DNA of 64,000 nucleotides, from positions 1-64,000 of the forward strand of contig CBDBPB010000002.1 in the NCBI GenBank assembly GCA_965208615.1, read 5' to 3'. Position numbers and translations under genes: made by a program. The stretch's first letter is position 1; every line of letters begins with the position of its first letter. Positions 13,704 through 55,920 of this stretch are shown here, piece after piece. Source of the stretch: Spirochaetota bacterium (GTDB lineage: Bacteria > Spirochaetota > UBA6919 > CBDBPB01). The notes below the pieces were generated by a model. The model was not told the origin of the DNA. It made no database searches and saw only the letters and a list, made by a program, of their open reading frames with translations.

Positions 13704-15086
13704 ATGTTAACAAATAATAGCTGCTTAAAGCTATTAATAGTTTTATTAGTTAGTTTATATATATTTAGCTGCGAGAATAAGAATTTTGTTGATGAAACTT
13801 TGAATAAAGATTCTATTGATAATAAGGATAAAAACGTTGTACAGGGTTCTATATCAGGAGGAATCCATGTAAGGGCTGATGCAAATGAGGGTGGAGACGG
13901 GTTAACTTGGATTAATGCTTTTAATGATCTTCAAAAGGGTATTGAGAAAGCTAAAGAAGAGGGTATAGGAAAGGTATATATTGCTCAAGGTAGTTATAAA
14001 GCTAGTGGTTGTCCTAATAGAGATGATTGTGAAGATATGCGTAATAGACATTTTTCCCTTAGAAATAATGTAGAGGTTATTGGTGGATATACTGCTAAGG
14101 GCGATGAGCATAATAAAGACCCTAGTAAAACTATATTAACCGGTGATATTAGTAATAATATAAGTGTTCATAATGTTTTTTATCATCCTGCTAAGGCTGG
14201 GCTAATTAGAACAGCTAAACTAAAATATGTTACCATTACTAAAGGTAATGCTAAGGGTAATAATAAGGATAGCGGTGGAGGGATGTATAATAATAATAGC
14301 TCACCAACGTTAACAGGTGTTAGTTTTACTGGAAATAATGCTATATGGTCCGGAGGTGGAATGGCTAACTATAATAAGAGTAGTCCAACGTTAAAAGATG
14401 TTAGTTTTACTGGAAATAATGCTGATAATGGTGGAGGGATATATAATAATAATAGCTCACTACAGCTAACAAATGTTAGTTTTACTGGAAATAATGCTGA
14501 TAATGGTGGAGGGATATATAATAATAATAGCTCACTACAGCTAACAAATGTTAGTTTTACTGGAAATAATGCTGATAATGGTGGAGGGATATATAATAAT
14601 AATAGCTCACTACAGCTAACAAATGTTAGTTTTACTAATAATACGGTTGATAATTATGGAGGGGGAATTTATAGTATTGATAGCTCTCTAACATTAACAA
14701 GTGTTAAGTTTATTAATAATATGGCTTATAGTTTTGGAGGTGGAATTCATAATAATGGTAGTTCTATAACGTTAACAAAGGTTGAGTTTATTAATAATAC
14801 GGCTTATAGTTTTGGAGGTGGAATTCATAATGGAGGTAGTAGTAGTTCACTAACCTTTAAAGAAGGTGTTAGTTTTAAGAAAAACCTTGTTGGTAGGATT
14901 AAATATAAACAAACAGGCAAAGGTGGAGCTATTTATAATGAATATGGGAAGGTAAGAGGCAGTCCAAGTTATGGAGCTAAATATATTAATGAAAAAGGAA
15001 AAGAGATCGACGAAGAAAATAAAAAAGTTATAAAAAATAATAATAAATATGTTTATACGAAGTCAGGCAGAGAAGATGAAAAATAG
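13704..15086 (+). CDS. Lipoprotein with Pmp-like (FxxN/GGGIY) beta-helix repeats
   Basis: Spirochaetal-type lipobox YIFSC; DGLTWINAFNDLQ; repeated SFTGNNA..GGGIYN. Confidence 0.85.
   Translation: MLTNNSCLKLLIVLLVSLYIFSCENKNFVDETLNKDSIDNKDKNVVQGSISGGIHVRADANEGGDGLTWINAFNDLQKGIEKAKEEGIGKVYIAQGSYKASGCPNRDDCEDMRNRHFSLRNNVEVIGGYTAKGDEHNKDPSKTILTGDISNNISVHNVFYHPAKAGLIRTAKLKYVTITKGNAKGNNKDSGGGMYNNNSSPTLTGVSFTGNNAIWSGGGMANYNKSSPTLKDVSFTGNNADNGGGIYNNNSSLQLTNVSFTGNNADNGGGIYNNNSSLQLTNVSFTGNNADNGGGIYNNNSSLQLTNVSFTNNTVDNYGGGIYSIDSSLTLTSVKFINNMAYSFGGGIHNNGSSITLTKVEFINNTAYSFGGGIHNGGSSSSLTFKEGVSFKKNLVGRIKYKQTGKGGAIYNEYGKVRGSPSYGAKYINEKGKEIDEENKKVIKNNNKYVYTKSGREDEK
14398..14636 (+). repeat. Perfect 75-bp in-frame tandem repeat (3 full units plus partial)
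   Basis: Identical units start at 14401, 14476, 14551 (partial at 14626), encoding VSFTGNNADNGGGIYNNNSSLQLTN. Confidence 0.95.
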
Positions 15087-24851: not shown

Positions 24852-25445
24852 TTAACTTATTAGGTTAACATTCTCTTTGGCTACAATATTAAATTTTTTT
24901 ATAGCTTTGTAAATATCACTGACCGGTAAGCCAACAACATTATTATAACAACCATCAATTTTAGATATATATTTTGAAAATAAACCCTGAATCTTATATG
25001 ATCCAGCCGCATCAAAAACATCCTCTCTATTTAAGTAATCCCTTATTTCAGAATTGCTTATACAATCAACGTATACATTTGTAACACTATAGTCAGTAAA
25101 AGCATAATTATTAACCGCATTAACAAGACTAAATCCAGTTATGACCTTATGAGAGCTATCAGAAAGCATATTCAAGAACTTATATGCCTCATCATAAGAT
25201 ATAGGCTTAGTTAGAACCTTATTATCAGCATAAACAATGGTATCAGCCCCAATAACTAAACGATTAGGATAATCATAAGCTACGGACTCAGCCTTTAAAA
25301 TGGATAACTTACTAACTAACTCATAAGGATTAGTTAGATCTATATCCTCATCAGCCTTAGGATAAACCACCTCAAAAGGAATACCAGCATTTTCTAATAA
25401 GTAGGCTCTTCTTTTTGACGATGAAGCTAAAATAATTATGCCCAA
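24852..25445 (-). CDS. maf: Maf family nucleoside triphosphate pyrophosphatase
   Basis: IILASSSKRR, VIGADTIV, AGSYKIQG, NVVGLP. Confidence 0.93.
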   Translation of the reverse strand: MGIIILASSSKRRAYLLENAGIPFEVVYPKADEDIDLTNPYELVSKLSILKAESVAYDYPNRLVIGADTIVYADNKVLTKPISYDEAYKFLNMLSDSSHKVITGFSLVNAVNNYAFTDYSVTNVYVDCISNSEIRDYLNREDVFDAAGSYKIQGLFSKYISKIDGCYNNVVGLPVSDIYKAIKKFNIVAKENVNLIS

Positions 25446-25481
25446 ATATCAAAACTACCATATATAGATATTTAATCTATC

Positions 25482-25510
25482 AGTATAGTAAAAAATATGC
25501 CATTTGTCAA
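25482..25510 (-). promoter_or_regulatory. sigma70 promoter of the maf-rpsB-tsf operon
   Basis: Minus strand TTGACA-17 nt-TATACT. Confidence 0.75.
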
Positions 25511-25667
25511 CTCCATTTTGATCATAGATAAAAATAGTACCGCTAAGCTACGTAATTAAAAGTATTTTCCTAATTTTTTTATAGCTTTCCTTTTTTTGAA
25601 ATAAGTTTCGTATGCTTATGTAATTATACTTAAAAACACATAAATCAATAAACGTAGGTGGCTAATT

Positions 25668-26414
25668 ATGAGATTTAGTTTTTCGACTAATTTTATAAAA
25701 GACAAAGTACTATCTTTATCTGATCCAAACTTTGTTGGTCTAAGAAATACAGTAGTCTCACTTTTAAAAGAGGCATTAAAACAAAATAATCCCGATTTGT
25801 TCAACGAGTATTATAAAAATAGTAAAAACAAAGTAAAGCCTTTTACCTTTTCCTATTATAGCCCTAACCTTAGACAAACAAAAACTAATGAAGCTAATAT
25901 ATTCCAGTTTGATAAACCCTTTATTAGGATATACCTGTCCTCATTGGATAATGGTTTCATTGTTAATATTTATAACGCTCTTAAAAAGCTAAAGAAATAC
26001 TCTTTTTTTAATCATCCCATTAGTTTAGGCAGTTTTACACTGATAAACCAAAAAACCATAACTCAAAATGAGATAAACTTTAAACTTTTATCGCCATTTG
26101 TGGTTAGGCAAATTGATAATAAAAAAGGAGTTGGCTATTTAACCATGTATGACGCTAACTTTGAAGATGGTATTTATTATCAGCTTAAGAATCTTAGCAA
26201 GCATTATCTTAAGAAAGGCTTAGATAGGAACAGCTTTTCAACAGACCTAAATAAGTGTAAGTCGGTTAAGGTTGTGCATTATAGGCAGGCTATAGACACT
26301 ACATCAGGGCTTATCAAGATTAGAGCACCTAAAGATGTTTTATCTATGATATATGATTTAGGACTTGGTTGTCGTCGTAGTCAGGGATTTGGCATGGTGG
26401 AGGTATTGTCATGA
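25668..26414 (+). CDS. cas6: CRISPR endoribonuclease Cas6
   Basis: KPFTFS, LLSPFVVR, C-terminal G-rich loop YDLGLGCRRSQGFGMV. Confidence 0.95.
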   Translation: MRFSFSTNFIKDKVLSLSDPNFVGLRNTVVSLLKEALKQNNPDLFNEYYKNSKNKVKPFTFSYYSPNLRQTKTNEANIFQFDKPFIRIYLSSLDNGFIVNIYNALKKLKKYSFFNHPISLGSFTLINQKTITQNEINFKLLSPFVVRQIDNKKGVGYLTMYDANFEDGIYYQLKNLSKHYLKKGLDRNSFSTDLNKCKSVKVVHYRQAIDTTSGLIKIRAPKDVLSMIYDLGLGCRRSQGFGMVEVLS

Positions 26415-28084
26415 GTGAGGGATTATTGTTAGATAAAAAGACTGAAAAAGTATATTTAGGTGATTGGTTATATAATGCTGGTATAGTAGGCTTTATTAGG
26501 ATCATAAACAATGGTGGGGATAAAAATAAAATATCTGACTTTGTTAAAGTTAATGATAACTCCATAGAGTTTGATAGGGATAAGCTAGAAGGCTTTTCGG
26601 AGAAGTTCTTTGAAACAGCCATAAAGCAATATGGTAGGTATGATAGGTTAGTAGAAGATTTACCCAACTTTGTTAAAGAGATTAATGACTTTAATGGTGA
26701 GCTATCCAATAATTTAAAAAGACTGGTTGACATAGCTGATACTGTTAAAAGACGACTAAACTTTACCTTACTAAAAGAAAAACTAAAAGATAACTATATA
26801 GCCTTACCCAATAAAAAAGCAGTTGAAGATAATCCTCAAATAGTTTTAGACACTATAAAAGAAGTACTGGATATACTTAAAAACGACTATAAAGACTTTC
26901 GGGAAGCTGATACCAAAATCTATTTATCACGTTTCTTTGGAAAGAATAATAGTGAGTCAAAAGGTAAGCTTAATACTTTTAAAAAATACTTTGAAGAGTC
27001 TATAGTAAATAACACTAATAAACCAGCAACAAAGGGAAGAGGAAAGAAGAAAATAGAATTTCAATGCGTTAACTGTGAAAGAATAGCTAAAAAAGATGTA
27101 ATTACAGATACAAGGATTGGTACATTTGCAGGAATAGGCTCAGTAAACGAGGCATGGAACTTTGGACCATACCTTCGTCTTTGTGAGATATGTGAGCTTA
27201 TTTATTTTTGTATTTTTGCTGGTTTTACAGATGTGTCAAGGGGTAAAGAAAAACTGTATTACTTTGTCAACCATGATATTAGTATTCAAGATCTAATCGA
27301 TGATAACCATATTCTACAAAGTGTATTAAGTAAAGGTGCAAAGGATAATATTTTATTCGATTACTTTACGGAATATCTTCATATACAAAAAGAAAAGTCT
27401 AAACATACTTTAAAGAATATATCCTTTATTGAGCTGGATAACCCTAATGGTATAATGCCTAAGGTTTATTCTCTAAACCTTGATAAAACAAAGGCTATGT
27501 TTATTCATAATTACCATGATAAGTTTAATAAGCTTGCCAAAGCCTATTATAAGGTTAAGGATAGCTCAAAAAACATATTAAGAGAACTTGTAGAGCATTT
27601 TCTCCTTAACTCTTTAAGTTATAATCAGATATATTGGTTGGCTAAGATATACATGACCGTAGCAGAAGGTAAATCAGATTATTATAAAGCTTATTTTAAC
27701 ACCTATCACATACAAAACTATATGCTAATTATTGCTTTATACAATAAAATAATTTTACAAGGAGAAAGTTCTATGGCAGACTTTGAGAAAAGTGTGTGGT
27801 TCATTTACAATAAGGGCAAAGAGCTTATGATTAAATTAAGACAGAATCAGGCTGAGAATAAGATTAGCACTATTGTACTTAGCCTATTAAACGCCCTAAG
27901 GGTCGGGGATGTTAATAAGTTTATGGAGGTCATTGTCAGGGTCTATATGGCTTATGGCTTAGATATTCCGTCTACTTTTGTAGAAGGGCTTACAAACAAA
28001 GATAGTTTTTATGCCTATGGTTATAGCTTTGTCAATGGACTATTAGCAAAAGAAAAAACTAATAAGGAGGCTAGTAATGTCTAA
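26411..28084 (+). CDS. cas8b: Type I-B large subunit Cas8b (Cst1, CXXC-CXXC)
   Basis: DWLYNAGIVGF, CVNC...LCEICELIYFC..AGF; C-terminal small-subunit-like region LLNALRVGD..FM preceded by an internal GGAG-ATG (possible Cas11 start at 27773). Confidence 0.9.
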   Translation: MSEGLLLDKKTEKVYLGDWLYNAGIVGFIRIINNGGDKNKISDFVKVNDNSIEFDRDKLEGFSEKFFETAIKQYGRYDRLVEDLPNFVKEINDFNGELSNNLKRLVDIADTVKRRLNFTLLKEKLKDNYIALPNKKAVEDNPQIVLDTIKEVLDILKNDYKDFREADTKIYLSRFFGKNNSESKGKLNTFKKYFEESIVNNTNKPATKGRGKKKIEFQCVNCERIAKKDVITDTRIGTFAGIGSVNEAWNFGPYLRLCEICELIYFCIFAGFTDVSRGKEKLYYFVNHDISIQDLIDDNHILQSVLSKGAKDNILFDYFTEYLHIQKEKSKHTLKNISFIELDNPNGIMPKVYSLNLDKTKAMFIHNYHDKFNKLAKAYYKVKDSSKNILRELVEHFLLNSLSYNQIYWLAKIYMTVAEGKSDYYKAYFNTYHIQNYMLIIALYNKIILQGESSMADFEKSVWFIYNKGKELMIKLRQNQAENKISTIVLSLLNALRVGDVNKFMEVIVRVYMAYGLDIPSTFVEGLTNKDSFYAYGYSFVNGLLAKEKTNKEASNV

Positions 28085-28994
28085 AGGTTTAACATTAACT
28101 ATAGTATTTGATGCAATGAGTTTAAATTATGGTGAGGGGATTGGTAATATATCAGAGTTAAAAAAGCTAAGTCGTGAAGGTGGAGTTTTTACTTACTTAT
28201 CCAGACAGGCTATACGCTACGATATTTTCAGGATGCTAAAGGATAATTTTGATATAGACAAAGGCAAGGATAACCCTTTAACTGTGGATAATACAGTTAT
28301 ACAGTTTAGTGATAAGACCAACATAGAAGACTATATAGAGGCAGATTTGTTTGGCTACATGAAAACGATAAAAGGTAGTGGCTCAGTTACACGTTCATCT
28401 CTTGTACGTATTAGTCCTGCCATTGCACTAGAGCCATTTCACTCTGATTTAGAGTGGGGTACTAATAAGAACTTTGCTGATCGTATGAAGGCTCATCCTA
28501 ATCCTTTTCAGTTTGAGCATCAATATTCTCTTTATTCATATACTATAACCGTTGATCTGGACAGGGTTGGTAAAGATGACAATGATAATATTGATATACC
28601 TAGTACTGAGAAAGCGGATAGGATTAAAAAGCTTATTGAGGTTGTCAAGGTCTTAAACAGGGACATCAAAGGACGAACTGAGAGCTTAAACCCTATTTTT
28701 GTTATAGGTGGTGTGTATAACGTTAAAAATCCATTCTTTTTAAACAAGATTAAGGTAGGCTATAACACAGATAAAAAGGCTTATACTCTGGATACAAATA
28801 TGCTAAACTCAACGTCAGAGTTTGTTTTCAACAACGAGAAAGTAAAAGATCATACAAAAGTGGCTTATTTATCTGGTTTCTGGTCTAATGAAGATGAGTT
28901 TAAAACCATAGTCAGCAAAGAGGATAGCTCTTTTGATAACATAAATGGTTTTTTTGATTCGGTTATTAGCTTAGTAAATAACGCTTATAATTAG
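28077..28994 (+). CDS. cas7: Type I-B Cas7 (Cst2/DevR)
   Basis: SLNYGEGIGNISELKK, SRQAIRY, EADLFGYM, YSYTITVDLDRVG. Confidence 0.93.
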   Translation: MSKGLTLTIVFDAMSLNYGEGIGNISELKKLSREGGVFTYLSRQAIRYDIFRMLKDNFDIDKGKDNPLTVDNTVIQFSDKTNIEDYIEADLFGYMKTIKGSGSVTRSSLVRISPAIALEPFHSDLEWGTNKNFADRMKAHPNPFQFEHQYSLYSYTITVDLDRVGKDDNDNIDIPSTEKADRIKKLIEVVKVLNRDIKGRTESLNPIFVIGGVYNVKNPFFLNKIKVGYNTDKKAYTLDTNMLNSTSEFVFNNEKVKDHTKVAYLSGFWSNEDEFKTIVSKEDSSFDNINGFFDSVISLVNNAYN

Positions 28995-29003
28995 GACAAT
29001 ACA

Positions 29004-29891
29004 ATGAAACTGCTATGTATAAAAGCTCATCAAGTTATGGCTAACTATAAAAAGCCTATGTGTTATGGTTTTATTGATAGCTATCCACTACCGCCTATCT
29101 CAACTATTAAAGGATGGTTCCATGCTGTTATTAATGCAAAGGAGTATATACCCATTAGTATGTCTATACAAGGGAATTCATCCTCGGTGGTATATGACCT
29201 TCAGAGAATGATAAAGTTTGATAGGGATAGGATATTAGAAAAGACAGCAGGGATTGACTTTGATACCTTTCACCGCAGGATAATTGCTAAGATAGCCAAT
29301 GAGGAGGATAAAGAACTTATTAAAAGCCTATATTCTTATGATAGCAAAAAGAAAGAATATATCCGTAAAGGTACTAAAGAATTACCTATCAAGTTTAAGG
29401 AGATTATGAAGTCTATTTCTTATCCTAAGCCTTATCTTGAAGATCATAATAAGATGCTGTCTTACTCGCCCACTTATGTTGCCAACGTGTTTAATATAGA
29501 TTTACTAATTTATATATCGGCGGATAAATGTCATCTTGATAAGTTTAAAGAGAGGGTATTTACTATTGACTATCCCCATATTGGTAGGAATGAGGATCTA
29601 ACCCGTATTGACTCAGTTAAGTATGTTGACGTCAAAGAGAAAAGCTTTGGTATGCAACAAAATCATAGCATAGATTATGGTGTATATTTAAACCGCTCAA
29701 CAACAAAGAAAATGAGTTTAATCGGGTCTAAGTATAGGATGCCTTTTAAGTATGAGGTTGCTAATGGTATTCGTTATTTTAATAGGCTGGATGTTGTATA
29801 TATTGAGGATGGAGCAGTGAATATACCTTGTCTATTTGATTATGAGGAAAATAGAATAATAGACCTAATAGGGGACTACAATGGAACATAG
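29004..29891 (+). CDS. cas5: Type I-B Cas5 with internal ~60-aa insertion
   Basis: ANYKKP..SYPLPPISTIKG, SPTYV, HIGRNEDL; position between cas7 and cas3. Confidence 0.9.
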   Translation: MKLLCIKAHQVMANYKKPMCYGFIDSYPLPPISTIKGWFHAVINAKEYIPISMSIQGNSSSVVYDLQRMIKFDRDRILEKTAGIDFDTFHRRIIAKIANEEDKELIKSLYSYDSKKKEYIRKGTKELPIKFKEIMKSISYPKPYLEDHNKMLSYSPTYVANVFNIDLLIYISADKCHLDKFKERVFTIDYPHIGRNEDLTRIDSVKYVDVKEKSFGMQQNHSIDYGVYLNRSTTKKMSLIGSKYRMPFKYEVANGIRYFNRLDVVYIEDGAVNIPCLFDYEENRIIDLIGDYNGT

Positions 29892-32124
29892 TGTATATGC
29901 CAAAACCTACTACAAAGAAGGCTGGACAACTGAATCGTTAGAGGAGCATGTTAAATGTCTAATGGATAATTTAGGCATATTAAAAAGTCTATATTCAGAA
30001 GAGATAGAAAGGCTTGTGGATGATAGTAAGCTATTTTGGGATAACTTAGGGTTTTGTGTTTTATTCCACGATTGCGGTAAGTTATCCACTCACTTTCAGA
30101 ATAAGATTAGGGACAAGCTAAACGAGGGTAGATTAAGATATAACACTAAGTTAAATGGTGAGATACCTCATAATTATTTATCCCCTGCCTTTGTGCCTGA
30201 GGATATGAGCGACTTTAAGATATTTTTTACTATTGCCTTTCACCACAATCGAAATATAGACTTTGATCAAAACTACCTCAAAACCGTTATTAATAATGAC
30301 CTTCAAAAAGTAGTTGACGCTAATAAAGAACTTTTTTCTTGGTTAAAAAGTTATGGTTATACACTGCGTAGCAAGCTTTGGGATGATTATTTTGACTATC
30401 TTCAGGATGGTAGGTATTATCGCTGTCAATATCAAAAGGTAAGAAAGGATAAGTTATATATTTTACTTAAAGGGCTATTCCACCGTTTAGACCACTCATC
30501 ATCGGCACATATACCTGTTGAGGTTGAGAGAATATCTGATCCAGAGGGCGAGTTACTATACTACTTAAAAAATAAGTTAGAAGAGAAGGGTCTTGCATTT
30601 GAGGGTTTAAAGCCCTTCCAAAAAGAGGCTAAACGCTATCGGGATAATAATGTTTTACTAACTGCATCCACTGGAGTGGGTAAAACAGAGTTTGCCATTA
30701 ACTGGATAGGCAATGACAAGGCATTTTATACTTTACCTCTTAGGGTATCGGTTAACGCTATGTATGAGCGGTTTATAAAGATGTTTTCAGAGGATAAGGT
30801 TGCACTTTTACACGGTGATAGTTTATTATACGAAATCGAAAGTGAGATTGAGGGCAAGAACTTTAAAGTAGAGGATCATATATTTAACGTTCAACATGCT
30901 AAACTATTTTCATTACCTATTACGATATCCACTGCTGATCAGTTATTTACAGCGGTATTCAAGTGGCCTGGTTATGAGAAGATTTATGCTAGCCTTATGT
31001 ATTCTAAGATTGTTTTAGATGAGCCTCAGAGTTATTCTCCCGAGGTTTTAGCTATGATTGTAAAGTGTCTAGAGGAGCTATCGGAATTAGGGTGCAGGTT
31101 TTGTTTTATGAGTGCCACCATTCATCCTTATGTTAGAGAACACTTTAAAGAGGCTGTTAAGTTGGGTCCTATTTATCACAAAGAGGATAAACACCGTATT
31201 TCTTTGGTTGATAACTCTATTGATGGCTTAACCCATAAAATAGAAGAGGAGTTTAGTCGGGATAAGAAGATACTTGTTATATGTAATACTGTAAAAAAGG
31301 CTCAGGAGCTTTATAGTATATTAGACACTTCATCTAAGAAGTTATTGCACTCGGGATTTATAAAAAGGGATAGGTTCATCAAAGAGAAGGATATACAAGC
31401 TGATTATAACAAGGATAAAGCTGTTATTTGGGTTACTACTCAGATAGTTGAGGCATCACTGGATATTGATTATGATATACTTTTTACTGAGCTATCTACC
31501 ATTGACTCTCTATTACAAAGGATGGGTAGGGTGTATCGTAGTACAGAGAGAAAGATAAAGGAAGACGATCCACCTAATGTTATTATAGCAACAAATAAGC
31601 CATCTGACAAATATTATATTTATGATGAGGATGTTGTAAATATTACGCTGGAGGTTTTATTAGAGTATGACAATAAGGTTTTACCAGAAAAAGAAAAGTT
31701 AACCTTAATGGATAAGGTTTTTGGTGATAAAGAGAGGATAAGGGCTTTTTATGATAGGTTTAATAAGACCTATCACTTATTGGATAGTGGTTTTGAGTCG
31801 GATAATAAAAAAGAGGCACAAAAGTTATTTAGGGATATTGCCAACAGGACAGTGATCCCCAATTCGGTTTATGAAGAGAACAAAAAGAGGATTAATGAAA
31901 TAGTTAATAAGCTGAATAGTAAGGGTAGGCTTGACAAAGAAAGACTTTTGAGCATAAAAGGGATTGATGACTTTACGGTGAGTTTAGCTACTTATAAGGT
32001 TTATGGAAAAGAGCGTATTGAGTTAGTGTCTAAGAGAGGTATATTCACAGCGGATATTGATTATAATAGTGAGACAGGCATTGAGTTTACCAAGAAGGCT
32101 AAAAACTACGCTGAGATTATATAG
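29881..32124 (+). CDS. cas3: Cas3 HD nuclease-helicase
   Basis: SLEEH, FHDCGK, FHH, RLDHSSS; ASTGVGKTE, LDEPQ, MSAT, QIVEASLDID, QRMGRVYR. Confidence 0.97.
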   Translation: MEHSVYAKTYYKEGWTTESLEEHVKCLMDNLGILKSLYSEEIERLVDDSKLFWDNLGFCVLFHDCGKLSTHFQNKIRDKLNEGRLRYNTKLNGEIPHNYLSPAFVPEDMSDFKIFFTIAFHHNRNIDFDQNYLKTVINNDLQKVVDANKELFSWLKSYGYTLRSKLWDDYFDYLQDGRYYRCQYQKVRKDKLYILLKGLFHRLDHSSSAHIPVEVERISDPEGELLYYLKNKLEEKGLAFEGLKPFQKEAKRYRDNNVLLTASTGVGKTEFAINWIGNDKAFYTLPLRVSVNAMYERFIKMFSEDKVALLHGDSLLYEIESEIEGKNFKVEDHIFNVQHAKLFSLPITISTADQLFTAVFKWPGYEKIYASLMYSKIVLDEPQSYSPEVLAMIVKCLEELSELGCRFCFMSATIHPYVREHFKEAVKLGPIYHKEDKHRISLVDNSIDGLTHKIEEEFSRDKKILVICNTVKKAQELYSILDTSSKKLLHSGFIKRDRFIKEKDIQADYNKDKAVIWVTTQIVEASLDIDYDILFTELSTIDSLLQRMGRVYRSTERKIKEDDPPNVIIATNKPSDKYYIYDEDVVNITLEVLLEYDNKVLPEKEKLTLMDKVFGDKERIRAFYDRFNKTYHLLDSGFESDNKKEAQKLFRDIANRTVIPNSVYEENKKRINEIVNKLNSKGRLDKERLLSIKGIDDFTVSLATYKVYGKERIELVSKRGIFTADIDYNSETGIEFTKKAKNYAEII

Positions 32125-32260
32125 TTTTAGTCCTAATACCCACCGCCACAAGGTGGTGGCACAGCAAAGTGGGTACACCTAGTGGGATTTAAAGTTATTC
32201 AAAGTGATAAATTTTGTCATTTTAGATAAAAGTTTTAGTCTCCAATAGTGGGGTTTAAAG
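32124..32260 (+). CRISPR. Degenerate intergenic mini-array (interrupted repeat - 37-nt spacer - repeat); candidate crRNA-like regulatory RNA
   Basis: GTTTTAGTCCTAATA (32124-32138), 41-nt insert, TAGTGGGATTTAAAG (32180-32194), spacer 32195-32231, GTTTTAGTCTCCAATAGTGGGGTTTAAAG (32232-32260; 27/29 to array consensus). Confidence 0.85.
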
Positions 32261-32271
32261 GAGATTATATA

Positions 32272-32766
32272 GTGACTTCTACTTATGTTACGGGCATACA
32301 GGTTAATTATTATCATATTTGCCTTAGGAAGTTGTGGCTATTTTCTCATAACATACAGATGGAGCATAATAGTCAGGCAGTTAGTATGGGAAAGGTTATT
32401 CATGACACGTTTTATAGGCGTAAGAGAAAAGAGATTAGGATTGAAGGCATAAAGATAGACTTTTTTGATGCTAAAAATGCTATGATCCACGAGGTTAAGA
32501 AGTCGAGGGCAATGAGTGACTCTCACATTTGGCAAATGAGATATTATCTTTATTTTTTAAAAGGGCTTGGGGTTAATGTATCAGGCATGATTAACTATCC
32601 GTTATTGAGAAAGAGAGAGAGGGTTGAGCTTAATAGCCAAGACATTGTCTATTTGGATAAGGTTTTATTAGATATACAGAGTATTGTGTCTAGGAGTAAT
32701 ATACCAGAGGTTATTAACAAAAAGCTTTGTAAGAGATGTAGTTATTATGATCTTTGTTATGTTTGA
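32272..32766 (+). CDS. cas4: CRISPR-associated exonuclease Cas4
   Basis: TGIQVNYYHICLRKLWLF, KIDF, HEVKKS, QMRYYL, CKRCSYYDLC; GTG start 8 nt after AAGGAG. Confidence 0.95.
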   Translation: MTSTYVTGIQVNYYHICLRKLWLFSHNIQMEHNSQAVSMGKVIHDTFYRRKRKEIRIEGIKIDFFDAKNAMIHEVKKSRAMSDSHIWQMRYYLYFLKGLGVNVSGMINYPLLRKRERVELNSQDIVYLDKVLLDIQSIVSRSNIPEVINKKLCKRCSYYDLCYV

Positions 32767-32772
32767 GGCACT

Positions 32773-33759
32773 ATGAGGGACTATTATATTTTTCGTTCTG
32801 GACGATTAAGGCGTAAGGATAAGTCTTTGATGTTTATTTATATGGATGATGGGTCTAAAAGGTATAAGCCTATTCCCATAAAGGATGTGGACACTATCCA
32901 TATTTTTGGTGAGATGGGTATAAACACAAAGCTCATTAACTTTTTATCTCAGAGGCGTATAGCTCTTCATATATTTAATTACTATGGATTTTATTCTGGT
33001 AATTTTTATCCTAGGGACTACTTAAATGCAGGGGATATTGTAGTAAGGCAGGTTAGTCACTATTTGGATTATGAAAAGCGATTATTTATAGCAAAAGAGA
33101 TGGTAAAGGGTGGGATTTATGGTATTATCAATAATTTAAAGCGTTATTTAGGGGATTGTGAGTTATTAGGTTCAGTTATTAATCTTGAGGATAGCATTGA
33201 TAAACAGGGTAAGATCCCCTCTCTTATGGGTATTGAGGGTAATATTCGTGATCTTTATTACAAGTCGTTTAATTACATAATAAAGCAGGACATTGATTTT
33301 AAAAAGAGGGTTAAGCATCCCCCTGACAACTGGATAAATGCCATAATATCGTTTGTAAATAGTTTGGTATACACAGAGGTTTTGAGGGCATTATATAGAA
33401 CACAGTTAAATCCTACGGTTAGCTATTTACACGAGCCATTTTACCGTAGATATTCTTTATCTTTGGACATAGCGGAGATATTTAAGCCAATACTGGGAGA
33501 TAGATTGATTTTTTCATTATTAAACAACAATCAGCTTAAAAAAAGTCATTTTGATAAGACATTAAACTTTAGTTATTTAAAAGAGCCAGGACGAAAGATA
33601 GTGGTTACGGAGTGGGATAAGAGGCTTAGGGACACGATTTACCATAAGCAGTTAAAGAAGAAAGTTAGTTACAGGCGTTTAGTTAGGCTGGAGGCATATA
33701 AGCTAATTAAGCATTTGTTAGGTGAGGAAGAGTATAAGAGTTTACGTATTTGGTGGTGA
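32773..33759 (+). CDS. cas1: Type I-B Cas1 integrase
   Basis: YYIFRSGRLRRKD, FNYYGFYSG, LMGIEG, NAIISFVNSLVY, SYLHEP, LSLDIAEIFKP. Confidence 0.98.
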   Translation: MRDYYIFRSGRLRRKDKSLMFIYMDDGSKRYKPIPIKDVDTIHIFGEMGINTKLINFLSQRRIALHIFNYYGFYSGNFYPRDYLNAGDIVVRQVSHYLDYEKRLFIAKEMVKGGIYGIINNLKRYLGDCELLGSVINLEDSIDKQGKIPSLMGIEGNIRDLYYKSFNYIIKQDIDFKKRVKHPPDNWINAIISFVNSLVYTEVLRALYRTQLNPTVSYLHEPFYRRYSLSLDIAEIFKPILGDRLIFSLLNNNQLKKSHFDKTLNFSYLKEPGRKIVVTEWDKRLRDTIYHKQLKKKVSYRRLVRLEAYKLIKHLLGEEEYKSLRIWW

Positions 33760-33762
33760 ATT

Positions 33763-34044
33763 ATGTTTGTAATAGGAGCTTATGACGTATCAACAGTGGA
33801 CAAGGCAGGGAGAGCAAGGTTACCGAAGTTGATGAAGTTGATGAGGCAATATTTGCATCATAGTCAGAGGTCGGTTTTTGAGGGTGAGATAACAGAAGGA
33901 GATTTATTGGAATTACGTAAGTCCATTAATAAAATAATTAATAAGGATGAGGATTATGTAGTTATATTTAAGGTAGCCAACCATAAAAATGTAAAGCGAG
34001 AGAATCTTGGTATAGAGTTTGATCCTGGGGATGTAATAATATAA
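33763..34044 (+). CDS. cas2: Cas2
   Basis: VIGAYDVS, YLHHSQRSVFEGEIT. Confidence 0.96.
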   Translation: MFVIGAYDVSTVDKAGRARLPKLMKLMRQYLHHSQRSVFEGEITEGDLLELRKSINKIINKDEDYVVIFKVANHKNVKRENLGIEFDPGDVII

Positions 34045-34122
34045 AAAGCATGATTGGAGGTTTGGGAATAAATTTAAGAAATGGTATATATAATTATATG
34101 TTATATAATAATTTGTGGATGG
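34045..34122 (+). promoter_or_regulatory. Probable CRISPR leader
   Basis: AT-rich non-coding gap between cas2 and first repeat; repeat orientation (3' ATTTAAAG) places the leader here. Confidence 0.55.
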
Positions 34123-34347
34123 GTTTTAGTCGCCAATAGTGGGATTTAAAGATCGTGTATACTATTGCCTTCACTCAAATAATATATGGTTTTAGTCGCC
34201 AATAGTGGGATTTAAAGAGAGAATTGGATATTAAAACTTAGAACAATCATAGTGTTTTAGTCGCCAATAGTGGGATTTAAAGGATGTCTTCTTTGTCAAT
34301 AGTGTCTTTGCACATTTTGTTTTAGTCGCCAATAGTGGGATTTAAAG
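34123..34347 (+). CRISPR. CRISPR array, 4 identical 29-bp repeats and 3 spacers (37, 36, 36 nt)
   Basis: GTTTTAGTCGCCAATAGTGGGATTTAAAG at 34123, 34189, 34254, 34319. Confidence 0.98.
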
Positions 34348-34367
34348 GCAACATAGTTGCTTTTAAA
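34341..34367 (+). terminator. Hairpin/terminator overlapping the 3' end of the last repeat
   Basis: TTTAAAGGCAAC-ATA-GTTGCTTTTAAA. Confidence 0.55.
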
Positions 34368-34533
34368 TAAGATAGATATATGCTATCTATATAAAGATTT
34401 AAAGCCAATACTGTTAAAACACAAATCAACTTATACTTTATAAAAACTAATAAATATTGACCAACAATATAATATTAAATATCTTTTCTTAAATCCCTTA
34501 TAATTGCCTCTCAATATCTATAATGGTACACCA

Positions 34534-35598
34534 ATGCACAAAATAGCAATCATAACTATAAATAATCCAGGACTAAACTCGGCTCTTAAACTACTAAATA
34601 TACTAAATACACATTATAAACCAGATAAAATTGCAGTCTTTTATAAAAAGGATAGCATAATTAACAATAACAAAAACCTAATCCCGTTCAATAACATAGA
34701 TGATATACTATCAGAGGCTTGGACTAACTTTAATATTATAATATGCTTTTTGGCAACCGGGATAGTCATTAGAAAAATAGCCCATAAGCTTAAATCTAAA
34801 ACATCTGATCCAGCAGTACTTGTTATGAGTTTCGACCTAACACAAGTTGTACCCCTAATATCAGGACATATAGGCGGTGCCAATGAGTTTGCACTAAAAC
34901 TAGAACGCATAATACCAAATTGTAAAAGCTTTATATCCACAGCTACAGACCAAACTAATGTATTCGCCTTTGATCTATTCGCAAAAGATCAAAACTTCAC
35001 AATAGAAAATATAAATAAATTAGCAGTTGTATCAAACCAACTCATTAATAATCAACAAGTTAATGTGTTTACTTATCCCACTATTTTTGAGCTAATAAAA
35101 AAGTATAAACAATATTCCAACAAAATTATATTTAAAAATATAGATGATGTTAATAATCAGGATAAGCCTTTATCAGTAAGCATATCCCCCTTTAATATAC
35201 AAAATCATAAACAACTTATAATCCGCATTCCCTCAATATATATTGGCATAGGACTAAATAAAAATACGCCTTTTAAGACTCTAATCAAGGCATTACACCT
35301 TTTTACTCTAGAACATAGCCTAAATATAAATGATATAACTAAAATAGGCTCATTCAAAGAAAAAGAAAATGAACCAGGTCTAAAAGAATTATCAGAACAC
35401 CTATCAATACCAATAACCTTTTTATCCGCAGATAGTATAAACTCTGTTGACTATAACTTATCCGATTCGGCAGCCAATAAGTTCTTTAATATAAAAGGCG
35501 TTGCTGAACCATCGGCTATTATAACATCCAAGCATAAAACCCTATTTCTAAAAAAACACTCCTATTTTAGAGAGGTAACCATAGCCTCTGCTTTTTAA
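34534..35598 (+). CDS. cbiG: Cobalt-precorrin-5A hydrolase CbiG
   Basis: ATGIVIRKIA..KSKTSDPAV, LISGHIGGANE, ISTATD, KENEPGL, GVAEPSA; start uncertain. Confidence 0.9.
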   Translation: MHKIAIITINNPGLNSALKLLNILNTHYKPDKIAVFYKKDSIINNNKNLIPFNNIDDILSEAWTNFNIIICFLATGIVIRKIAHKLKSKTSDPAVLVMSFDLTQVVPLISGHIGGANEFALKLERIIPNCKSFISTATDQTNVFAFDLFAKDQNFTIENINKLAVVSNQLINNQQVNVFTYPTIFELIKKYKQYSNKIIFKNIDDVNNQDKPLSVSISPFNIQNHKQLIIRIPSIYIGIGLNKNTPFKTLIKALHLFTLEHSLNINDITKIGSFKEKENEPGLKELSEHLSIPITFLSADSINSVDYNLSDSAANKFFNIKGVAEPSAIITSKHKTLFLKKHSYFREVTIASAF

Positions 35599-48087: not shown

Positions 48088-48699
48088 GTGATAGTGTCTA
48101 ATAATAACATAACAAGAGGATATGGTTTATTAGAGGGCTTTTTAGCTAAACAAAGGGCGAATATTGCTAATAAGCTAATAGATAATAGTTATAGAGCTGG
48201 TAAGATCTTAGATATAGGATGTGGTAGTTATCCTTATTTTCTTAATAATACTTTGTTTAGTTTTAAATTTGGTTTAGATAAATTAACTGACGAACACCAT
48301 AATAAGAATAGATATTCAAATATTAACTTTATCAACCATGATCTTGAGCATAATAACCAACTAACTTTGGAAAGTAACAACTTTGATGTAGTTACTATGC
48401 TTGCTGTTTTTGAGCATATTGAACCAGCAAAAATAGTAAGCTTATTAAATGAGATTAACCGTGTGTTAAAGGTAGGTGGTGTTTTTATTATAACTACTCC
48501 TAATATTTTGGCAGATAAACTTTTAAGGATAATGGCTAAACTACGCTTGGTTAGTCCTGTAGAGATTGAAGAACATAAAGATGCATATAACTTTTCTAAA
48601 ATAACCTATCTTTTTGAAAAGAGCAACTTTAACGTAAATAATCTTAAGTTGGGTTATTTTAAAATGTTTTTAAATATTTGGTGCAGTATTAAAAAGTAG
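48088..48699 (+). CDS. Class I SAM-dependent methyltransferase
   Basis: ILDIGCG, FDVVTMLAVFEH, RVLKVGG.FIITTP. Confidence 0.88.
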   Translation: MIVSNNNITRGYGLLEGFLAKQRANIANKLIDNSYRAGKILDIGCGSYPYFLNNTLFSFKFGLDKLTDEHHNKNRYSNINFINHDLEHNNQLTLESNNFDVVTMLAVFEHIEPAKIVSLLNEINRVLKVGGVFIITTPNILADKLLRIMAKLRLVSPVEIEEHKDAYNFSKITYLFEKSNFNVNNLKLGYFKMFLNIWCSIKK

Positions 48700-48788
48700 A
48701 TTTATGTATTATAAATAACTTCTTAATGCAATTAATCCTGATAAATTATAGCTAAAAACTGTGATAAATAGAAATTCTAGGTTATAAA

Positions 48789-50486
48789 ATGTTAATCATA
48801 TTAATTGTTTGGATTTATGCTACGTTCTTACTCTGGTCATTTGGACTGGCTTATCAGAGGATAATCGAAAAGGTATTCTCAGAGCAAAAAGATATATCAC
48901 CATATTTAACCCTGTGGAATGGTATTTTATTTATTACTGTTATATTGTCGGTAATATCTATTTTCTCTAAGATAACTTATGAGTTGTCTTTTGTTTTTTT
49001 GTTGTGTTCTATACTATATATTATATTTGATTTTAGTTATGTTAAAGATAAGTTTAAAAGCATTATACAAAGGTTAAAAGGTATTTCACCTTTTGTTTAT
49101 GTAGTTTTTTTAGTATTTATTATTATTACTTTACACCAAAGTCTACCATCCTTGCTTCAAGGTGATGCTGTTGGATATCATCAGCCAGCGGTTAAGTGGA
49201 TAAATAATTATTCAGTGGTACCTGGGTTAGGTAATTTGCATAATAGACTAGCTTATAACCCCCATTGGTTTTTGTTTTCTGCACTACTTAATTATAACGA
49301 TTATAATTTTCATTTTATAAGTGGATTAATTATGCTATTTGCCATATTTTGGGGGTTAACTGGACTAAATAAGCTATTTCAAAAAAGATTTAATATTACA
49401 AATATAATTAAAGCATTATCACTGCTTCCTATGCTTCTTCTTTTTAGTAATCCTAATGTAAACCACGCTTTCAGTACAGATTTAGCAACTTTTTTTATTG
49501 TCTATTTTATATTATATTATGCAGTTAAATTATTAGTAGAGAAGAAAAAGGATAATAAAGTTTTAATATTTATGCTTGTTAACTTTTCTTTTTTTGTATT
49601 AACAATTAAGCTATCTAGTTTATTTATAGTTATTGCCCCATTGTACTTTTTATATCTTTTTTTAAAGAGGTCTGATATAAAGCTTAAGTCTATTTCTTTT
49701 GTAGCAGTAAGTTTTATTATAATTATAATGCCTTTTTTAATAAGAAATATTATTTTATCAGGATATTTAGTTTTTCCTTTCCCAATGTTAGACTTCTTTA
49801 ATTTTGACTGGAAGATGCCTTATAATGCAGTGGTTGACTTAAAGAATTTTATAGGGCTTTGGGCCAAATGGCAAGGTGGAGGCTATTTGGAAGTAGCTAA
49901 TAATGATTTTTGGTTTTGGTTTATACCATGGATAAAAGTAAACTGGAAAACTCGAGAATTACTTTTATTAGTTATAAGTATTATAACTTATGTTTTTTAT
50001 TTCTTTTTTCACTATAACAGGGCAATAAGCCATTTAAAAAAGTTTAGTATTATTTATTTGACTTTGTTAGTTAATATTAGTGTATGGTTTATTACTGCAC
50101 CTGCTATTAGATTTGCTAGTGGTTATATATTCTTTTTTAGTATATTTTTAATAGCTTTACAAGAGTGGGACTTTATAATTAAAATTAGAGAAAATGTTAA
50201 TACAATACGACTGGCAAAAGTATTATTAATATTAGCACTTTGCGTTTTGTTTTTTCGTATGGATTTTACTAAATTTATAAACATTAAAGACTGGATAACC
50301 TTATCCTCTTATCCAGAGGCAGAGCTAACTACTAAAAAAACAATAGACAATACAATAATTTATGTGCCAGTAAAAGATGAAATCTGTTACAACTCCCCCT
50401 TAACTTGTACGGCATATTTTAATCCTAACTTAGAGATGCGTGGTAAAAGCCTACAAGATGGGTTTAGGATAGCGGATAATAAATAG
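48789..50486 (+). CDS. Polytopic membrane protein, LIC_10190-like, probable GT-C fold (copy 1)
   Basis: Many TM segments; D..YH and PGLGNL loop, STD, TIKLS, RNIILSGYLVFP, WFITAP..RF, C-terminal Cys pair, LEMRG..LQDGFR. Confidence 0.75.
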   Translation: MLIILIVWIYATFLLWSFGLAYQRIIEKVFSEQKDISPYLTLWNGILFITVILSVISIFSKITYELSFVFLLCSILYIIFDFSYVKDKFKSIIQRLKGISPFVYVVFLVFIIITLHQSLPSLLQGDAVGYHQPAVKWINNYSVVPGLGNLHNRLAYNPHWFLFSALLNYNDYNFHFISGLIMLFAIFWGLTGLNKLFQKRFNITNIIKALSLLPMLLLFSNPNVNHAFSTDLATFFIVYFILYYAVKLLVEKKKDNKVLIFMLVNFSFFVLTIKLSSLFIVIAPLYFLYLFLKRSDIKLKSISFVAVSFIIIIMPFLIRNIILSGYLVFPFPMLDFFNFDWKMPYNAVVDLKNFIGLWAKWQGGGYLEVANNDFWFWFIPWIKVNWKTRELLLLVISIITYVFYFFFHYNRAISHLKKFSIIYLTLLVNISVWFITAPAIRFASGYIFFFSIFLIALQEWDFIIKIRENVNTIRLAKVLLILALCVLFFRMDFTKFINIKDWITLSSYPEAELTTKKTIDNTIIYVPVKDEICYNSPLTCTAYFNPNLEMRGKSLQDGFRIADNK

Positions 50487-50577
50487 GCTAATCTTTATAT
50501 TGGGATAGTCCAATAACTGCCTGACCAAGGGATACTCCTCTATCTTAACCTAAATTAAACTTTATTGAGGAGTAAAA
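50487..50577. repeat. 91-bp intergenic unit containing a copy of the hypF 3' end
   Basis: 50488-50534 identical to 55921-55967; whole unit recurs at 52282 and 54125. Confidence 0.95.
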
Positions 50578-52281
50578 ATGTTAATCATATTAATTGTTTG
50601 GATTTATGCTACGTTCTTACTCTGGTCATTTGGAGTGGCTTATCAAAGGATAATCGAAAAGATATTCTCTGAGCAAAAAGATATATCACCATATTTAACT
50701 CTGTGGAATGGTATTTTATTTATTACTGTTATATTGTCGGTAATATCTATTTTCTCTAAGATAACTTATGAGCTATCCTTAGTTTTTTTCGCTTGCTCTG
50801 TACTATACATTATATTCGATTTTAGTTATGTTAAAGATAAGTTTAAAAGCATTATACAAAGGTTAAAAGGTATCTCACCTTTTGTTTATGTAGTTTTTTT
50901 AGTATTTATTATTATTACTTTATACCAATCCAGCTTATCGTCCCTGCTTTTAGCTGATTCTGGTGGCTATCATCATCCAGCGGTTGAGTGGATAAATAAT
51001 TATTCAGTGGTACCTGGGTTAGGTAATTTGCATCATAGACTAGCCTTTAACTCTCATTGGTTTTTGTTTTCTGCACTGTTTAATTATAACGATTATAATT
51101 TTCATTTTATAAGTGGATTAATTATGCTATTTGCCATATTTTGGGGGTTAACTGGACTAAATAAGCTATTTCAAAAAAGATTTAATATTACAAATATAAT
51201 TAAAGCATTATCAGTGCTTCCTATACTTTTTATCTTTAGTAATCCTAATATAAACCAAGCTTTCAGTACAGATTTAGCAACTTTTTTTATTGTCTATTTT
51301 ATATTATATTATGCAGTTGAATTATTAGAGAAGAAAAAGGATAATAAAGTTTTAATATTTATGCTTGTTAACTTTTCTTTTTTTTTAGTAACAATTAAAC
51401 TATCTAGTTTATTTATAGCTATTGTTCCATTGTACTTTTTATATCTTTTTTTAAGAAAGACTGATATAAAGCTTAAGTCTATTTCTTTTGTAGCAGTAAG
51501 TTTTATTATAATTATAATGCCTTTTTTAATAAGAAATATTATTTTATCAGGATATTTAGTTTTTCCTTTACCAATGTTAGACTTCTTTGATTTTGACTGG
51601 AAGACTCCCTATAATGCAGTGCTTAACTTAAAGAATGTAATAGAGTTTTGGGCTAAAAAGCCAGGTGAAGGCTTTTGGGAAGTAGCTAATAATGATTTTT
51701 GGTTTTGGTTTATACCATGGATAAAAGACAACTGGAAAACACGAGAACTATCTTTACTAATTATAAGTATTATAACTTATGTATTTTATTTCTTTTTTCA
51801 CTATAATAGGTCAATAAGCCATTTAAAAAAGTTTAGTATTATTTATTTAACTTTGTTAGTTAATCTTAGTGTATGGTTTATTACTGCACCTGCTATTAGG
51901 TTTGCTAGTGGTTATATACTCTTTTTTAGTATATTTTTAATAGCTTTACAAGGGTGGGACTTTATAATTAAAATTAGAGAAAATGTTAATACAATACGAC
52001 TGGCAAAAGTATTATTAATATTAGCACTTTGCGTTTTGTTTTTTCGTATGGATTTTACTAAACTTATAAATATTAAAAGCTGGATAACCTTATCCTCTTA
52101 TCCAGAGGTAAAGCTAACTACTAAAAAAACAATAGACAATACAATAATTTATATGCCAGTAAAAGATGGAAATTGTTACAACGCTCCCTTACCTTGTACA
52201 CAGCCTTATATTTTTAATTCTAAGTTAGAGATGCGTGGTAAAAGCCTACAAGACGGCTTTAGGATAGCGGATAATAAATAA
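50578..52281 (+). CDS. LIC_10190-like probable GT-C membrane protein (copy 2)
   Basis: Paralogue of copy 1; GAGGAG RBS. Confidence 0.75.
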   Translation: MLIILIVWIYATFLLWSFGVAYQRIIEKIFSEQKDISPYLTLWNGILFITVILSVISIFSKITYELSLVFFACSVLYIIFDFSYVKDKFKSIIQRLKGISPFVYVVFLVFIIITLYQSSLSSLLLADSGGYHHPAVEWINNYSVVPGLGNLHHRLAFNSHWFLFSALFNYNDYNFHFISGLIMLFAIFWGLTGLNKLFQKRFNITNIIKALSVLPILFIFSNPNINQAFSTDLATFFIVYFILYYAVELLEKKKDNKVLIFMLVNFSFFLVTIKLSSLFIAIVPLYFLYLFLRKTDIKLKSISFVAVSFIIIIMPFLIRNIILSGYLVFPLPMLDFFDFDWKTPYNAVLNLKNVIEFWAKKPGEGFWEVANNDFWFWFIPWIKDNWKTRELSLLIISIITYVFYFFFHYNRSISHLKKFSIIYLTLLVNLSVWFITAPAIRFASGYILFFSIFLIALQGWDFIIKIRENVNTIRLAKVLLILALCVLFFRMDFTKLINIKSWITLSSYPEVKLTTKKTIDNTIIYMPVKDGNCYNAPLPCTQPYIFNSKLEMRGKSLQDGFRIADNK

Positions 52282-52372
52282 ACTAATCTTTATATTGGGA
52301 TAGTCCAATAACTGCCTGACCAAGGGATAGTCCTCTATCTTAACCTAAATTAAACTTTATTGAGGAGTAAAA
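52282..52372. repeat. 91-bp intergenic unit containing a copy of the hypF 3' end
   Basis: 52283-52329 identical to 55921-55967. Confidence 0.95.
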
Positions 52373-54124: not shown

Positions 54125-54215
54125 ACTAATCTTTATATTGGGATAGTCCAATAACTGCCTGACCAAGGGATAGTCCTCTATCTTAACCTAAATTAAACTT
54201 TATTGAGGAGTAAAA
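54125..54215. repeat. 91-bp intergenic unit containing a copy of the hypF 3' end
   Basis: 54126-54172 identical to 55921-55967. Confidence 0.95.
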
Positions 54216-55919: not shown

Positions 55920-55920
55920 A

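Follow-up and report, generated by a model that had tools for sequence, protein, structure and literature searches.

Why does a CRISPR repeat run into the ribosome-binding site of an adaptation gene, and does it do anything there? The question is raised by a type I-B CRISPR-cas locus on contig CBDBPB010000002.1 (GCA_965208615.1), of which 64,000 nt were analysed (the window) against the background of the whole 2.46-Mb genome. In this locus the stretch between cas3 and cas4 ends in a repeat copy that forms part of the cas4 ribosome-binding site (RBS). The best-supported reading, which we consider about as probable as not (roughly 0.5), is that a mini-CRISPR array, young and in part degenerate, was inserted between cas3 and cas4 and with its end restored an RBS for cas4, any regulatory use being secondary and unproven.

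A repeat copy at the cas4 start codon

The repeat copy, denoted psiR2, occupies positions 32232-32260 and reads GTTTTAGTCTCCAATAGTGGGGTTTAAAG. It is identical at 27 of 29 positions to the array repeat of the locus, GTTTTAGTCGCCAATAGTGGGATTTAAAG, the two differences being G10T and A22G. At up to three mismatches the window contains five matches to the repeat, against 0.00 expected from 100 shuffles, and when up to seven substitutions are allowed the whole genome holds those same five matches only. The motif AAGGAG lies at 32258-32263, 8 nt before the cas4 GTG (32272-32274). A first-pass annotation of this DNA had described the end of the repeat and the following GAG as forming this Shine-Dalgarno (SD) sequence, and the sequence confirms it: AAG is contributed by the end of psiR2, while GAG comes from a duplicated end of cas3.

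The same annotation placed the likely start of cas4 at the GTG at 32272, an assignment backed by two features of the protein. Position 1 of the Pfam Cas_Cas4 profile aligns at residue 7, and M1, the start column, does not vary when the window Cas4 is aligned with six homologues, some of them sharing its MTS... beginning. Inside psiR2 there is a further in-frame GTG, at 32248, with no SD sequence before it. The 16S rRNA ends ...GATCACCTCCTT, with the tail ...CACCTCCTT, i.e. CCTCCTT. The 8-nt spacing between SD and start at cas4 falls in a genome range of 4-13 nt, and the use of such sites is common in this genome, with a 5-mer SD near an early start in 424 of 1286 long open reading frames (ORFs) as against a background of 2.8% of random 14-nt windows. 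The junction sequence is reproduced in an independent Logan assembly of the probable source sample, where a single contig spans 25400-34151 and shows 0 differences; contigs from another, low-coverage sample of that study cover 31710-32168. No described example of such an arrangement was known at the first pass, and literature searches likewise turned up no repeat fused to a cas4 RBS, supplementary locus lists being outside their reach.

Anatomy of the mini-array

The repeat copy does not stand alone but forms the 3' end of a mini-array. This had been missed at first, as had the 13-nt duplication that flanks the whole block and the origin of the SD GAG in duplicated cas3 sequence. The other repeat, psiR1, is split in two. 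Its 5' part (32124-32132, + strand), GTTTTAGTC, corresponds exactly to repeat positions 1-9, and its 3' part (32180-32194, + strand), TAGTGGGATTTAAAG, corresponds exactly to positions 15-29, so that all 24 retained positions are exact. The cas3 coding sequence reaches the first repeat base, the first G of psiR1 being the last base of the cas3 TAG stop (32122-32124); a repeat search found AGTTTTAGTC both here, at 32123-32132, and at 32231-32240, across the start of psiR2. The 3' part contains the 8-nt handle ATTTAAAG (32187-32194), and the exact 15-mer that makes up this part occurs in the genome only at 32180-32194 and in the four array repeats.

In place of repeat positions 10-14, psiR1 carries a G+C-rich, hairpin-forming segment of 47 nt (32133-32179, + strand). 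No other copy of it was found in the genome by blastn-short with 32128-32182, nor does it match an Rfam family; the Rfam search over 25300-34700 returned a sub-threshold GAIT match only. In the predicted fold of 32124-32194 the basal repeat stem is retained and the insert adds an 8-bp apical hairpin (-22.1 kcal/mol). A CreT-like toxin within the insert was considered and rejected, there being no proper start with an SD sequence and no second genome copy.

Between psiR1 and psiR2 lies a spacer-like segment of 37 nt, psiS (32195-32231, + strand), equal in length to the array spacers (36-37 nt). The block thus comprises two repeat-like sequences outside the main array, within the cas locus and separated by a spacer-length gap, which is the make-up of a degenerate mini-CRISPR; with two repeat units only, one of them interrupted, and no leader, it is not a canonical CRISPR array. 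The class is known, and the position between cas3 and cas4 differs from those given in the available text of the published descriptions.

Insertion into the cas3-cas4 junction

The block is bracketed by two copies of the 13-nt sequence GAGATTATATAGT. The left copy (32113-32125, + strand) consists of the last cas3 codons, E-I-I-stop, plus T, and the right copy (32261-32273, + strand) runs into the cas4 GTG. Exact copies occur nowhere else in the 64-kb window, and these two stand 148 nt apart; at up to one mismatch there are three matches against 0.43 expected. Deleting the block together with one copy restores ...ATT ATA TAG TG ACT TCT..., where stop of cas3 and start of cas4 have 1 nt in common, and the uninterrupted ancestral junction would read ...ATTATATAGTGACT.... 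The sequence thus shows a 148-nt insertion that split an ancestral cas3-TAG/GTG-cas4 overlap; the block entered, with a 13-nt target duplication, exactly at that overlap. An ancestral overlap of stop and start also fits the relatives, because cas3-cas4 gaps are short in the same repeat family: in the 11 loci whose repeat ends ...GGGATTTAAAG they are -4 (five loci), 5, 6, 9, 31 and 77, with one not measurable, and the Cas3 proteins of this family end ...Asn-Ile-Ile or similar.

The effect on cas4 can be read from the same comparison. The insertion broke a translational coupling that the relatives retain, while turning a weak CTGAGA into AAGGAG; both the GAG of the SD sequence and the 8-nt spacer before the GTG are duplicated cas3 codons, the repeat supplying AAG alone. 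As the flanking duplication shows, the overlap of repeat and SD is a product of the insertion junction, and no selected function is needed to account for it.

Expected processing of the block

The insertion reading carries with it a course of events at the RNA level. Prediction on the + strand gave neither a sigma-70 promoter nor an intrinsic terminator for the cas3-cas4 gap of 147 nt (32125-32271), so the block is most likely transcribed with the cas operon and would form part of its mRNA. In type I-B, according to the available portion of PMC5965381, the cut made by Cas6b enzymes falls 8 nt ahead of the junction of repeat and spacer, and the first pass had placed a new 5' end at 32253 in agreement with this rule. 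By analogy, cleavage of the mini-array repeats is plausible. Cas6 would most likely cut at 32186/32187 and at 32252/32253, thereby releasing a 66-nt RNA (32187-32252) resembling a CRISPR RNA (crRNA), severing the mRNA of the sole adaptation module (cas4-cas1-cas2) from that of the interference genes, and leaving the cas4 mRNA with a 19-nt leader beginning GUUUAAAG. The overlap with the RBS would then be a by-product of the insertion, and one that let the insertion be tolerated. The survival of the basal stem next to the cut site in the psiR1 fold, despite the 47-nt insert, supports this reading.

Several points weigh against it. Transcription and cleavage of the block are themselves inferences, and A22G sits at the nucleotide 3' of the predicted cut, where it may impair Cas6. 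The near-perfect state of the repeat parts, with 0 changes in 24 nt for psiR1 and 2 in 29 for psiR2, could mean constraint rather than youth. In addition, G10U strengthens a helix that hides the SD sequence (see below), which hints at function over accident. The mini-array is carried by one genome lineage only, which allows no judgement on selection. Finally, Cas1-Cas2 integration duplicates a whole repeat, and a duplication of 13 nt (or 11 nt) does not fit that process.

Related cas4 loci

In all, 91 cas4 loci (88 distinct) were compared. Fifty-one distinct loci have a known array repeat and at least 200 nt upstream of cas4; at up to 28% mismatches, none of them has a repeat-like sequence before cas4, and a half-repeat scan of 27 other loci with gaps of at least 60 nt was negative. 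What stands of the original observation is that the arrangement is real, on the coding strand and within an intact I-B operon; conservation, found in 0 of 51 related loci, does not. No other locus compared has precisely the arrangement of the window. Upstream gaps of cas4 could be measured at 80 loci, with overlap at 9, 1-30 nt at 31, 31-100 nt at 22 and more than 100 nt at 18. The arrays of the ...GGGATTTAAAG family all lie downstream of cas2 on the cas strand. The nearest Cas4 among genome contigs is 60% identical (within the best 80 of 540 relatives), a Cas4 search of metagenome contigs gave one locus at 48% identity, and a scan of genome contigs with the window repeat as a 23-letter pattern (2 N) gave 0 records.

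One relative, L023, offers a partial parallel. This delta-proteobacterial metagenome-assembled genome belongs to the same repeat family, its Cas4 being 55% identical, and it has a mini-array between the cas4 stop and the cas1 start (6492-6611), in which two repeat-like sequences (2 and 3 mismatches) flank 35 nt. As in the window, two repeat-likes and a spacer occupy a short gap of the adaptation operon, here the cas4-cas1 gap that normally measures 6-12 nt, and a handle-like motif, GGATTTAAAC, stands directly ahead of the start codon, in this case the cas1 ATG. The L023 element differs in lying one gene further down, in having a spacer antisense to cas1, and in that no flanking duplication was seen around it. 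The spacer matches the antisense strand of its own cas1 (6789-6823) at 27 of 35 positions with a CCG flank; at the same site in other cas1 genes of the family it matches at 30/35 (L031) and 29/35 (L028), with CCG/CCA flanks. These matches make the L023 mini-array a candidate crRNA-like regulator of cas1, or a candidate scar of self-targeting against cas1. Mini-arrays have thus entered the adaptation operon of this repeat family at least twice, bringing a self-like spacer on both occasions.

The 68-spacer array of L023 gave no match against phages, and against its own genome it matched the arrays and one mini-array-like sequence only. In genome G061 an isolated stretch of 95 nt (C26:246767-246861), far from the cas locus, is 82% identical to a repeat-spacer-repeat unit of the L023 array and, on this similarity, may be another mini-array.

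Folding of the RNA and translation of cas4

The fusion of a repeat to an RBS invites regulatory explanations, and the predicted folding of the RNA bears on these directly. For 32232-32300 the minimum free energy (MFE) structure and the centroid are the same: UAGUCUCC (32236-32243) pairs with GGAGAUUA (32260-32267) to form an 8-bp helix (-13 kcal/mol) that hides the SD sequence. The probability that GGAG is unpaired in the uncut RNA is 0.02-0.04, or 0.05-0.09 when 231 nt of context are folded. With U10 changed back to the canonical G, 2.7 kcal/mol is lost and the MFE structure no longer contains the SD-hiding helix. The predicted cut product folds at only -5.5 kcal/mol, with GGAG still weakly paired (probability unpaired 0.04-0.05). 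The fold of 32232-32300 is no better than that of shuffled sequences (z -0.49).

The mechanism put forward at the first pass was that Cas6 cleavage leaves a crRNA-like 5' handle on the cas4 mRNA, and that loading of Cas5 and Cas7, or a shift in stability, makes cas4-cas1-cas2 fall as Cascade rises. The predicted handle (32253-32260) does overlap AAGGAG by 3 nt and differs from the canonical one at the first base only, and in type I complexes Cas5 caps the 5' handle while Cas7 coats the guide, as set out in the accessible sections of PMC4937334. The changed base is, however, the first base of the handle, nothing comparable exists in the 51 related loci, and in L023 cleavage at the final handle-like motif would take the SD sequence away instead of tagging it, all of which makes this mechanism very unlikely. 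An engineered precedent, 'RNA wrapping' of tagged mRNAs by Cas7, was looked for and appeared neither in PMC4937334 nor in a literature search. The modelled folds, if anything, suggest the opposite sign, with Cas6 an activator of cas4 translation rather than a repressor, because cleavage would break the SD-hiding helix.

An activating role can be formulated as follows: the 5' half of psiR2 would hide the cas4 SD sequence, a Cas6 cut in the loop of the helix would free it, and the adaptation module would be efficiently translated only when Cas6 is active. The presence of the helix in both MFE structure and centroid, the 2.7 kcal/mol contributed by U10 and the weaker folding of the cut product are what such a device would call for. 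There is also an engineered precedent, described in the available part of PMC8621321, in which a Csy4 hairpin is placed between an RBS and a cis-repressor and cleavage activates translation. Yet the z-score is that of shuffled sequence, GGAG is also paired, if weakly, after the cut, the SD-hiding helix competes with the repeat hairpin that Cas6 may need, and the arrangement is not conserved, so that we regard gating of this kind as rather unlikely.

A wider version would have the mini-array co-opted as both a Cas6-operated switch and a separator, in which the uncut RNA masks the cas4 SD sequence with the help of G10U, and cleavage unmasks it and detaches the cas4-cas1-cas2 mRNA. We hold this to be doubtful, in the same degree. 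Its appeal lies in the composition of the genome. A PF01867 search of the whole genome gave a single match, the cas1 of the window, and a second type I-B effector module is present at C1:340772-348495 (loci L014 and L020), where cas6 lies on the minus strand, the array has 7 repeats, and a cas8b of the TM1802 type is accompanied by other genes as far as cas3. The repeat of the C1 array is GTTTAACCGTACCTATAAGGAATTGAAAC. The leaders of the window array and of the C1 array share GGAGGTTTGGGAATAAAT; as no other cas1 exists in the genome, the window cas4-cas1-cas2 may serve both arrays. In a genome with a single cas1 but with two arrays and two I-B effector modules, it would make biological sense to control the adaptation genes separately. 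If the switch were real, acquisition for both effector modules and both arrays would be licensed only when crRNA-processing capacity is present, and the window and L023 would together represent a class of mini-arrays that regulate adaptation genes and not interference genes.

The spacer-like segment and a dispersed palindrome

The segment psiS is an imperfect 35-nt palindrome (-8.7 kcal/mol, z -4.1). Its core, 32202-32222, is a copy of a dispersed intergenic palindrome, AAATGAYAAAWTTTRTCATTT (21-25 bp), which at up to one mismatch has 13 sites in the genome, as against 0 for a reversed control, and is present in 0 of the 25 relatives searched, the nearest of these being in the same order only. 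In addition to the window copy, the sites include C8:55004-55024, C3:131388-131408, C4:258898-258918, C1:341623-341643 and C1:348611-348631. Long ORFs contain only 2 of the 16 listed sites; the other 14 are found between convergent, tandem or divergent genes, and most are 30-130 nt past a gene end or ahead of a gene start; the flanking genes have no common function. Three of the 13 sites fall in the two CRISPR-cas loci, one in the window and two flanking the C1 effector locus, where about 0.1 would be expected by rough arithmetic; on these figures the association looks real. The two C1 copies share approximately 75 nt and bracket the array and the cas8b-to-cas3 segment. The best full-length match of psiS is at C8:54995-55031(-), with 33 of 37 positions identical and a TCA 5' flank, and psiS also matches C8:54997-55033(+), where positions 1-9 are perfect. 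From these matches psiS is read as a host-derived spacer.

It is conceivable that the palindrome itself acts, as a protein operator, a -35 module or a weak bidirectional attenuator that sets cas4-cas1-cas2 against the interference genes, and that the repeats were merely its vehicle. The abundance of the element in this genome (13 sites against 0 for the control), its absence from the relatives and its largely intergenic placement would suit such a role, as would the TTGACA/TTGTCA-like hexamers within the motif. Against this, the contexts are mixed and the flanking genes share no function, no acceptable -10 follows the hexamer in the window, and the stem is A+U-rich without a U-run. The exact 37-nt spacing between the repeat parts fits a true spacer better. 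An active palindrome is therefore a quite improbable explanation.

If psiS is a true spacer, the 66-nt RNA could act in trans in the manner of CreR or CreA, guiding Cascade by partial complementarity to the palindrome sites and repressing without cleavage. The order of two repeats around psiS matches the degenerate mini-CRISPR architecture given in the available text of PMC10120712 and of bioRxiv 10.1101/2023.03.10.532045. As sites of action, C8:54995-55031 and the two palindrome copies on either side of the second I-B locus are candidates; the 33/37 match with its TCA flank, the perfect positions 1-9 on the opposite strand of C8, the three palindrome sites in CRISPR-cas loci and the CCG-flanked 27/35 match of the L023 spacer to cas1 antisense are all in keeping with such an activity. 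The guide would, on the other hand, be strongly self-pairing, which is unusual, and no partial match beyond chance exists in the cas6 upstream region or in any cas intergenic region. Outside the C8 copy, psiS positions 1-4 fall in the variable flanks of the palindrome sites; the two C1 copies mismatch positions 1-2, with the 5' flanks AAG (repeat-like) and GTA, and no protospacers were found that would define the protospacer-adjacent motif (PAM). On balance a trans-acting regulator of this type is unlikely.

A target of the CreR type was sought by an ungapped scan of both cas loci, which gave no cas upstream or intergenic site above chance, the palindrome copies scoring best. PAM-proximal complementarity to a cas promoter next to a PAM, the mark of a CreR autoregulator, was not found. 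The spacers of the window array gave no match against phages.

Some further candidates were examined and set aside. A psiS seed match to a multi-copy element (TTATTTAAAGTGATA..., 14/15, position 6 off) is at chance level, there being 2749 perfect 7-nt psiS seeds genome-wide and, by arithmetic, about 2 such 14/15 extensions expected. The same holds for a CCT-flanked 20/37 site in the cas6 5' region (25734-25770, minus strand), since the 9.3 kb in which it lies has five sites whose seed score is equal. A repeat-like flank at the C4:258898 palindrome was rejected on a local alignment score of 54, other palindrome sites reaching 33-59. Before the C1:348611 palindrome there is a stretch resembling the C1-type repeat at 19 of 29 positions, a value reached by 2 of 2000 random windows; it consists in part of the palindrome arm itself.

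Relation to known systems

The closest known counterparts are the regulatory mini-arrays and CreR RNAs described by Shmakov et al. 2023 (PMC10120712) and Liu et al. 2023 (bioRxiv 10.1101/2023.03.10.532045). To the extent covered by the accessible text of these reports, they have in common with the window block two degenerate repeats, one spacer-length segment, a place in the cas locus on the cas strand and a host-like spacer. The I-B CreR mini-arrays in that text are located close to cas6 and match, beside a PAM, the promoter of cas6 or of cas8; the window block lies at the cas3/cas4 junction, is fused to the cas4 RBS and has no promoter target that could be found. CreTA, the CRISPR-repressed toxin-antitoxin RNA pair of haloarchaeal I-B systems treated in the same two sources, is similar, so far as these portions go, in being a degenerate mini-CRISPR between cas genes of an I-B operon, and different in that here neither a toxin-like small gene nor a psiS-matched promoter was seen in or next to the 148-nt block. 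The block has no ATG mini-ORF with an SD sequence and no Rfam family, and nearby psiS matches only its own palindromic partner strand.

Engineered switches based on Csy4 (Cas6f) resemble the locus in having a Cas6 site immediately in front of an RBS and, upstream of the cut, a segment complementary in cis, so that translation can be altered by cleavage (PMC8621321; MORTISE, PMC13478208, in the sections available). Those devices are synthetic and use a type I-F enzyme, whereas the window arrangement is natural and of type I-B, with a predicted Cas6 site.

The crRNA-like regulators known from type I systems target effector-gene or toxin promoters, and little is understood of how cas1, cas2 and cas4 are kept at a low level and matched to the production of crRNA. 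The window locus is a natural case of a predicted Cas6 site within an operon, on the RBS of the first adaptation gene. The flanking duplication records how a repeat-spacer-repeat unit can move, and so bears on the origin of mini-arrays and of new arrays. Even an inert element would be a clean case of an RBS destroyed and rebuilt by one and the same insertion.

The type I-B locus and other repeats of the genome

By Pfam, the type I-B locus of the window is complete and its operon intact, in the order cas6-cas8b-cas7-cas5-cas3-cas4-cas1-cas2, with the array adjoining; the genome has a G+C content of 31%. The first gene is cas6 (25668-26414, + strand; Cas_Cas6_C, E 2.6e-22), which encodes the enzyme expected to cut the repeats of the locus. 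It is followed by a cas8b-like gene (26411-28084; CXXC_CXXC) and cas7 (28077-28994; DevR). The ORF at 29004-29891 has no Pfam match and is assigned to cas5 by position only. Next come cas3, with HD and helicase parts (29881-32124, + strand; Cas3_HD, DEAD and Cas3-like_C_2), and, beyond the inserted block, the GTG-initiated cas4 (32272-32766, + strand; Cas_Cas4, E 2.1e-55), cas1 (32773-33759, + strand) and cas2 (33763-34044, + strand), the last two also matched by Pfam. A 78-nt leader (34045-34122, + strand) leads into the CRISPR array (34123-34347, + strand), which consists of four identical 29-nt repeats and three spacers. At 34396-34404, 48 nt 3' of the last full repeat, there is a 9-nt repeat-end fragment, GATTTAAAG, which may be a decayed terminal repeat, though the spacing is shorter than one unit.

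Repeated sequences of other kinds were also observed. A unit of approximately 160 nt that starts TTAGGTTATTTARAGTGATATTATTTAATAATTTAGTTATCA occurs both in tandem and dispersed, at C8:122924-123575, at C3:160814-161335 and in at least six other places; one pattern gives at least 15 copies. Within the window, a unit of about 1.8 kb is repeated four times in tandem at 48631-55982, with 92-98% identity between long stretches of the copies; these are probably paralogous genes in an array. Finally, 14215-14803 contains tandem coding repeats of 75-78 nt rich in GGxGG/IYN-like motifs, as in repeat-containing surface proteins.

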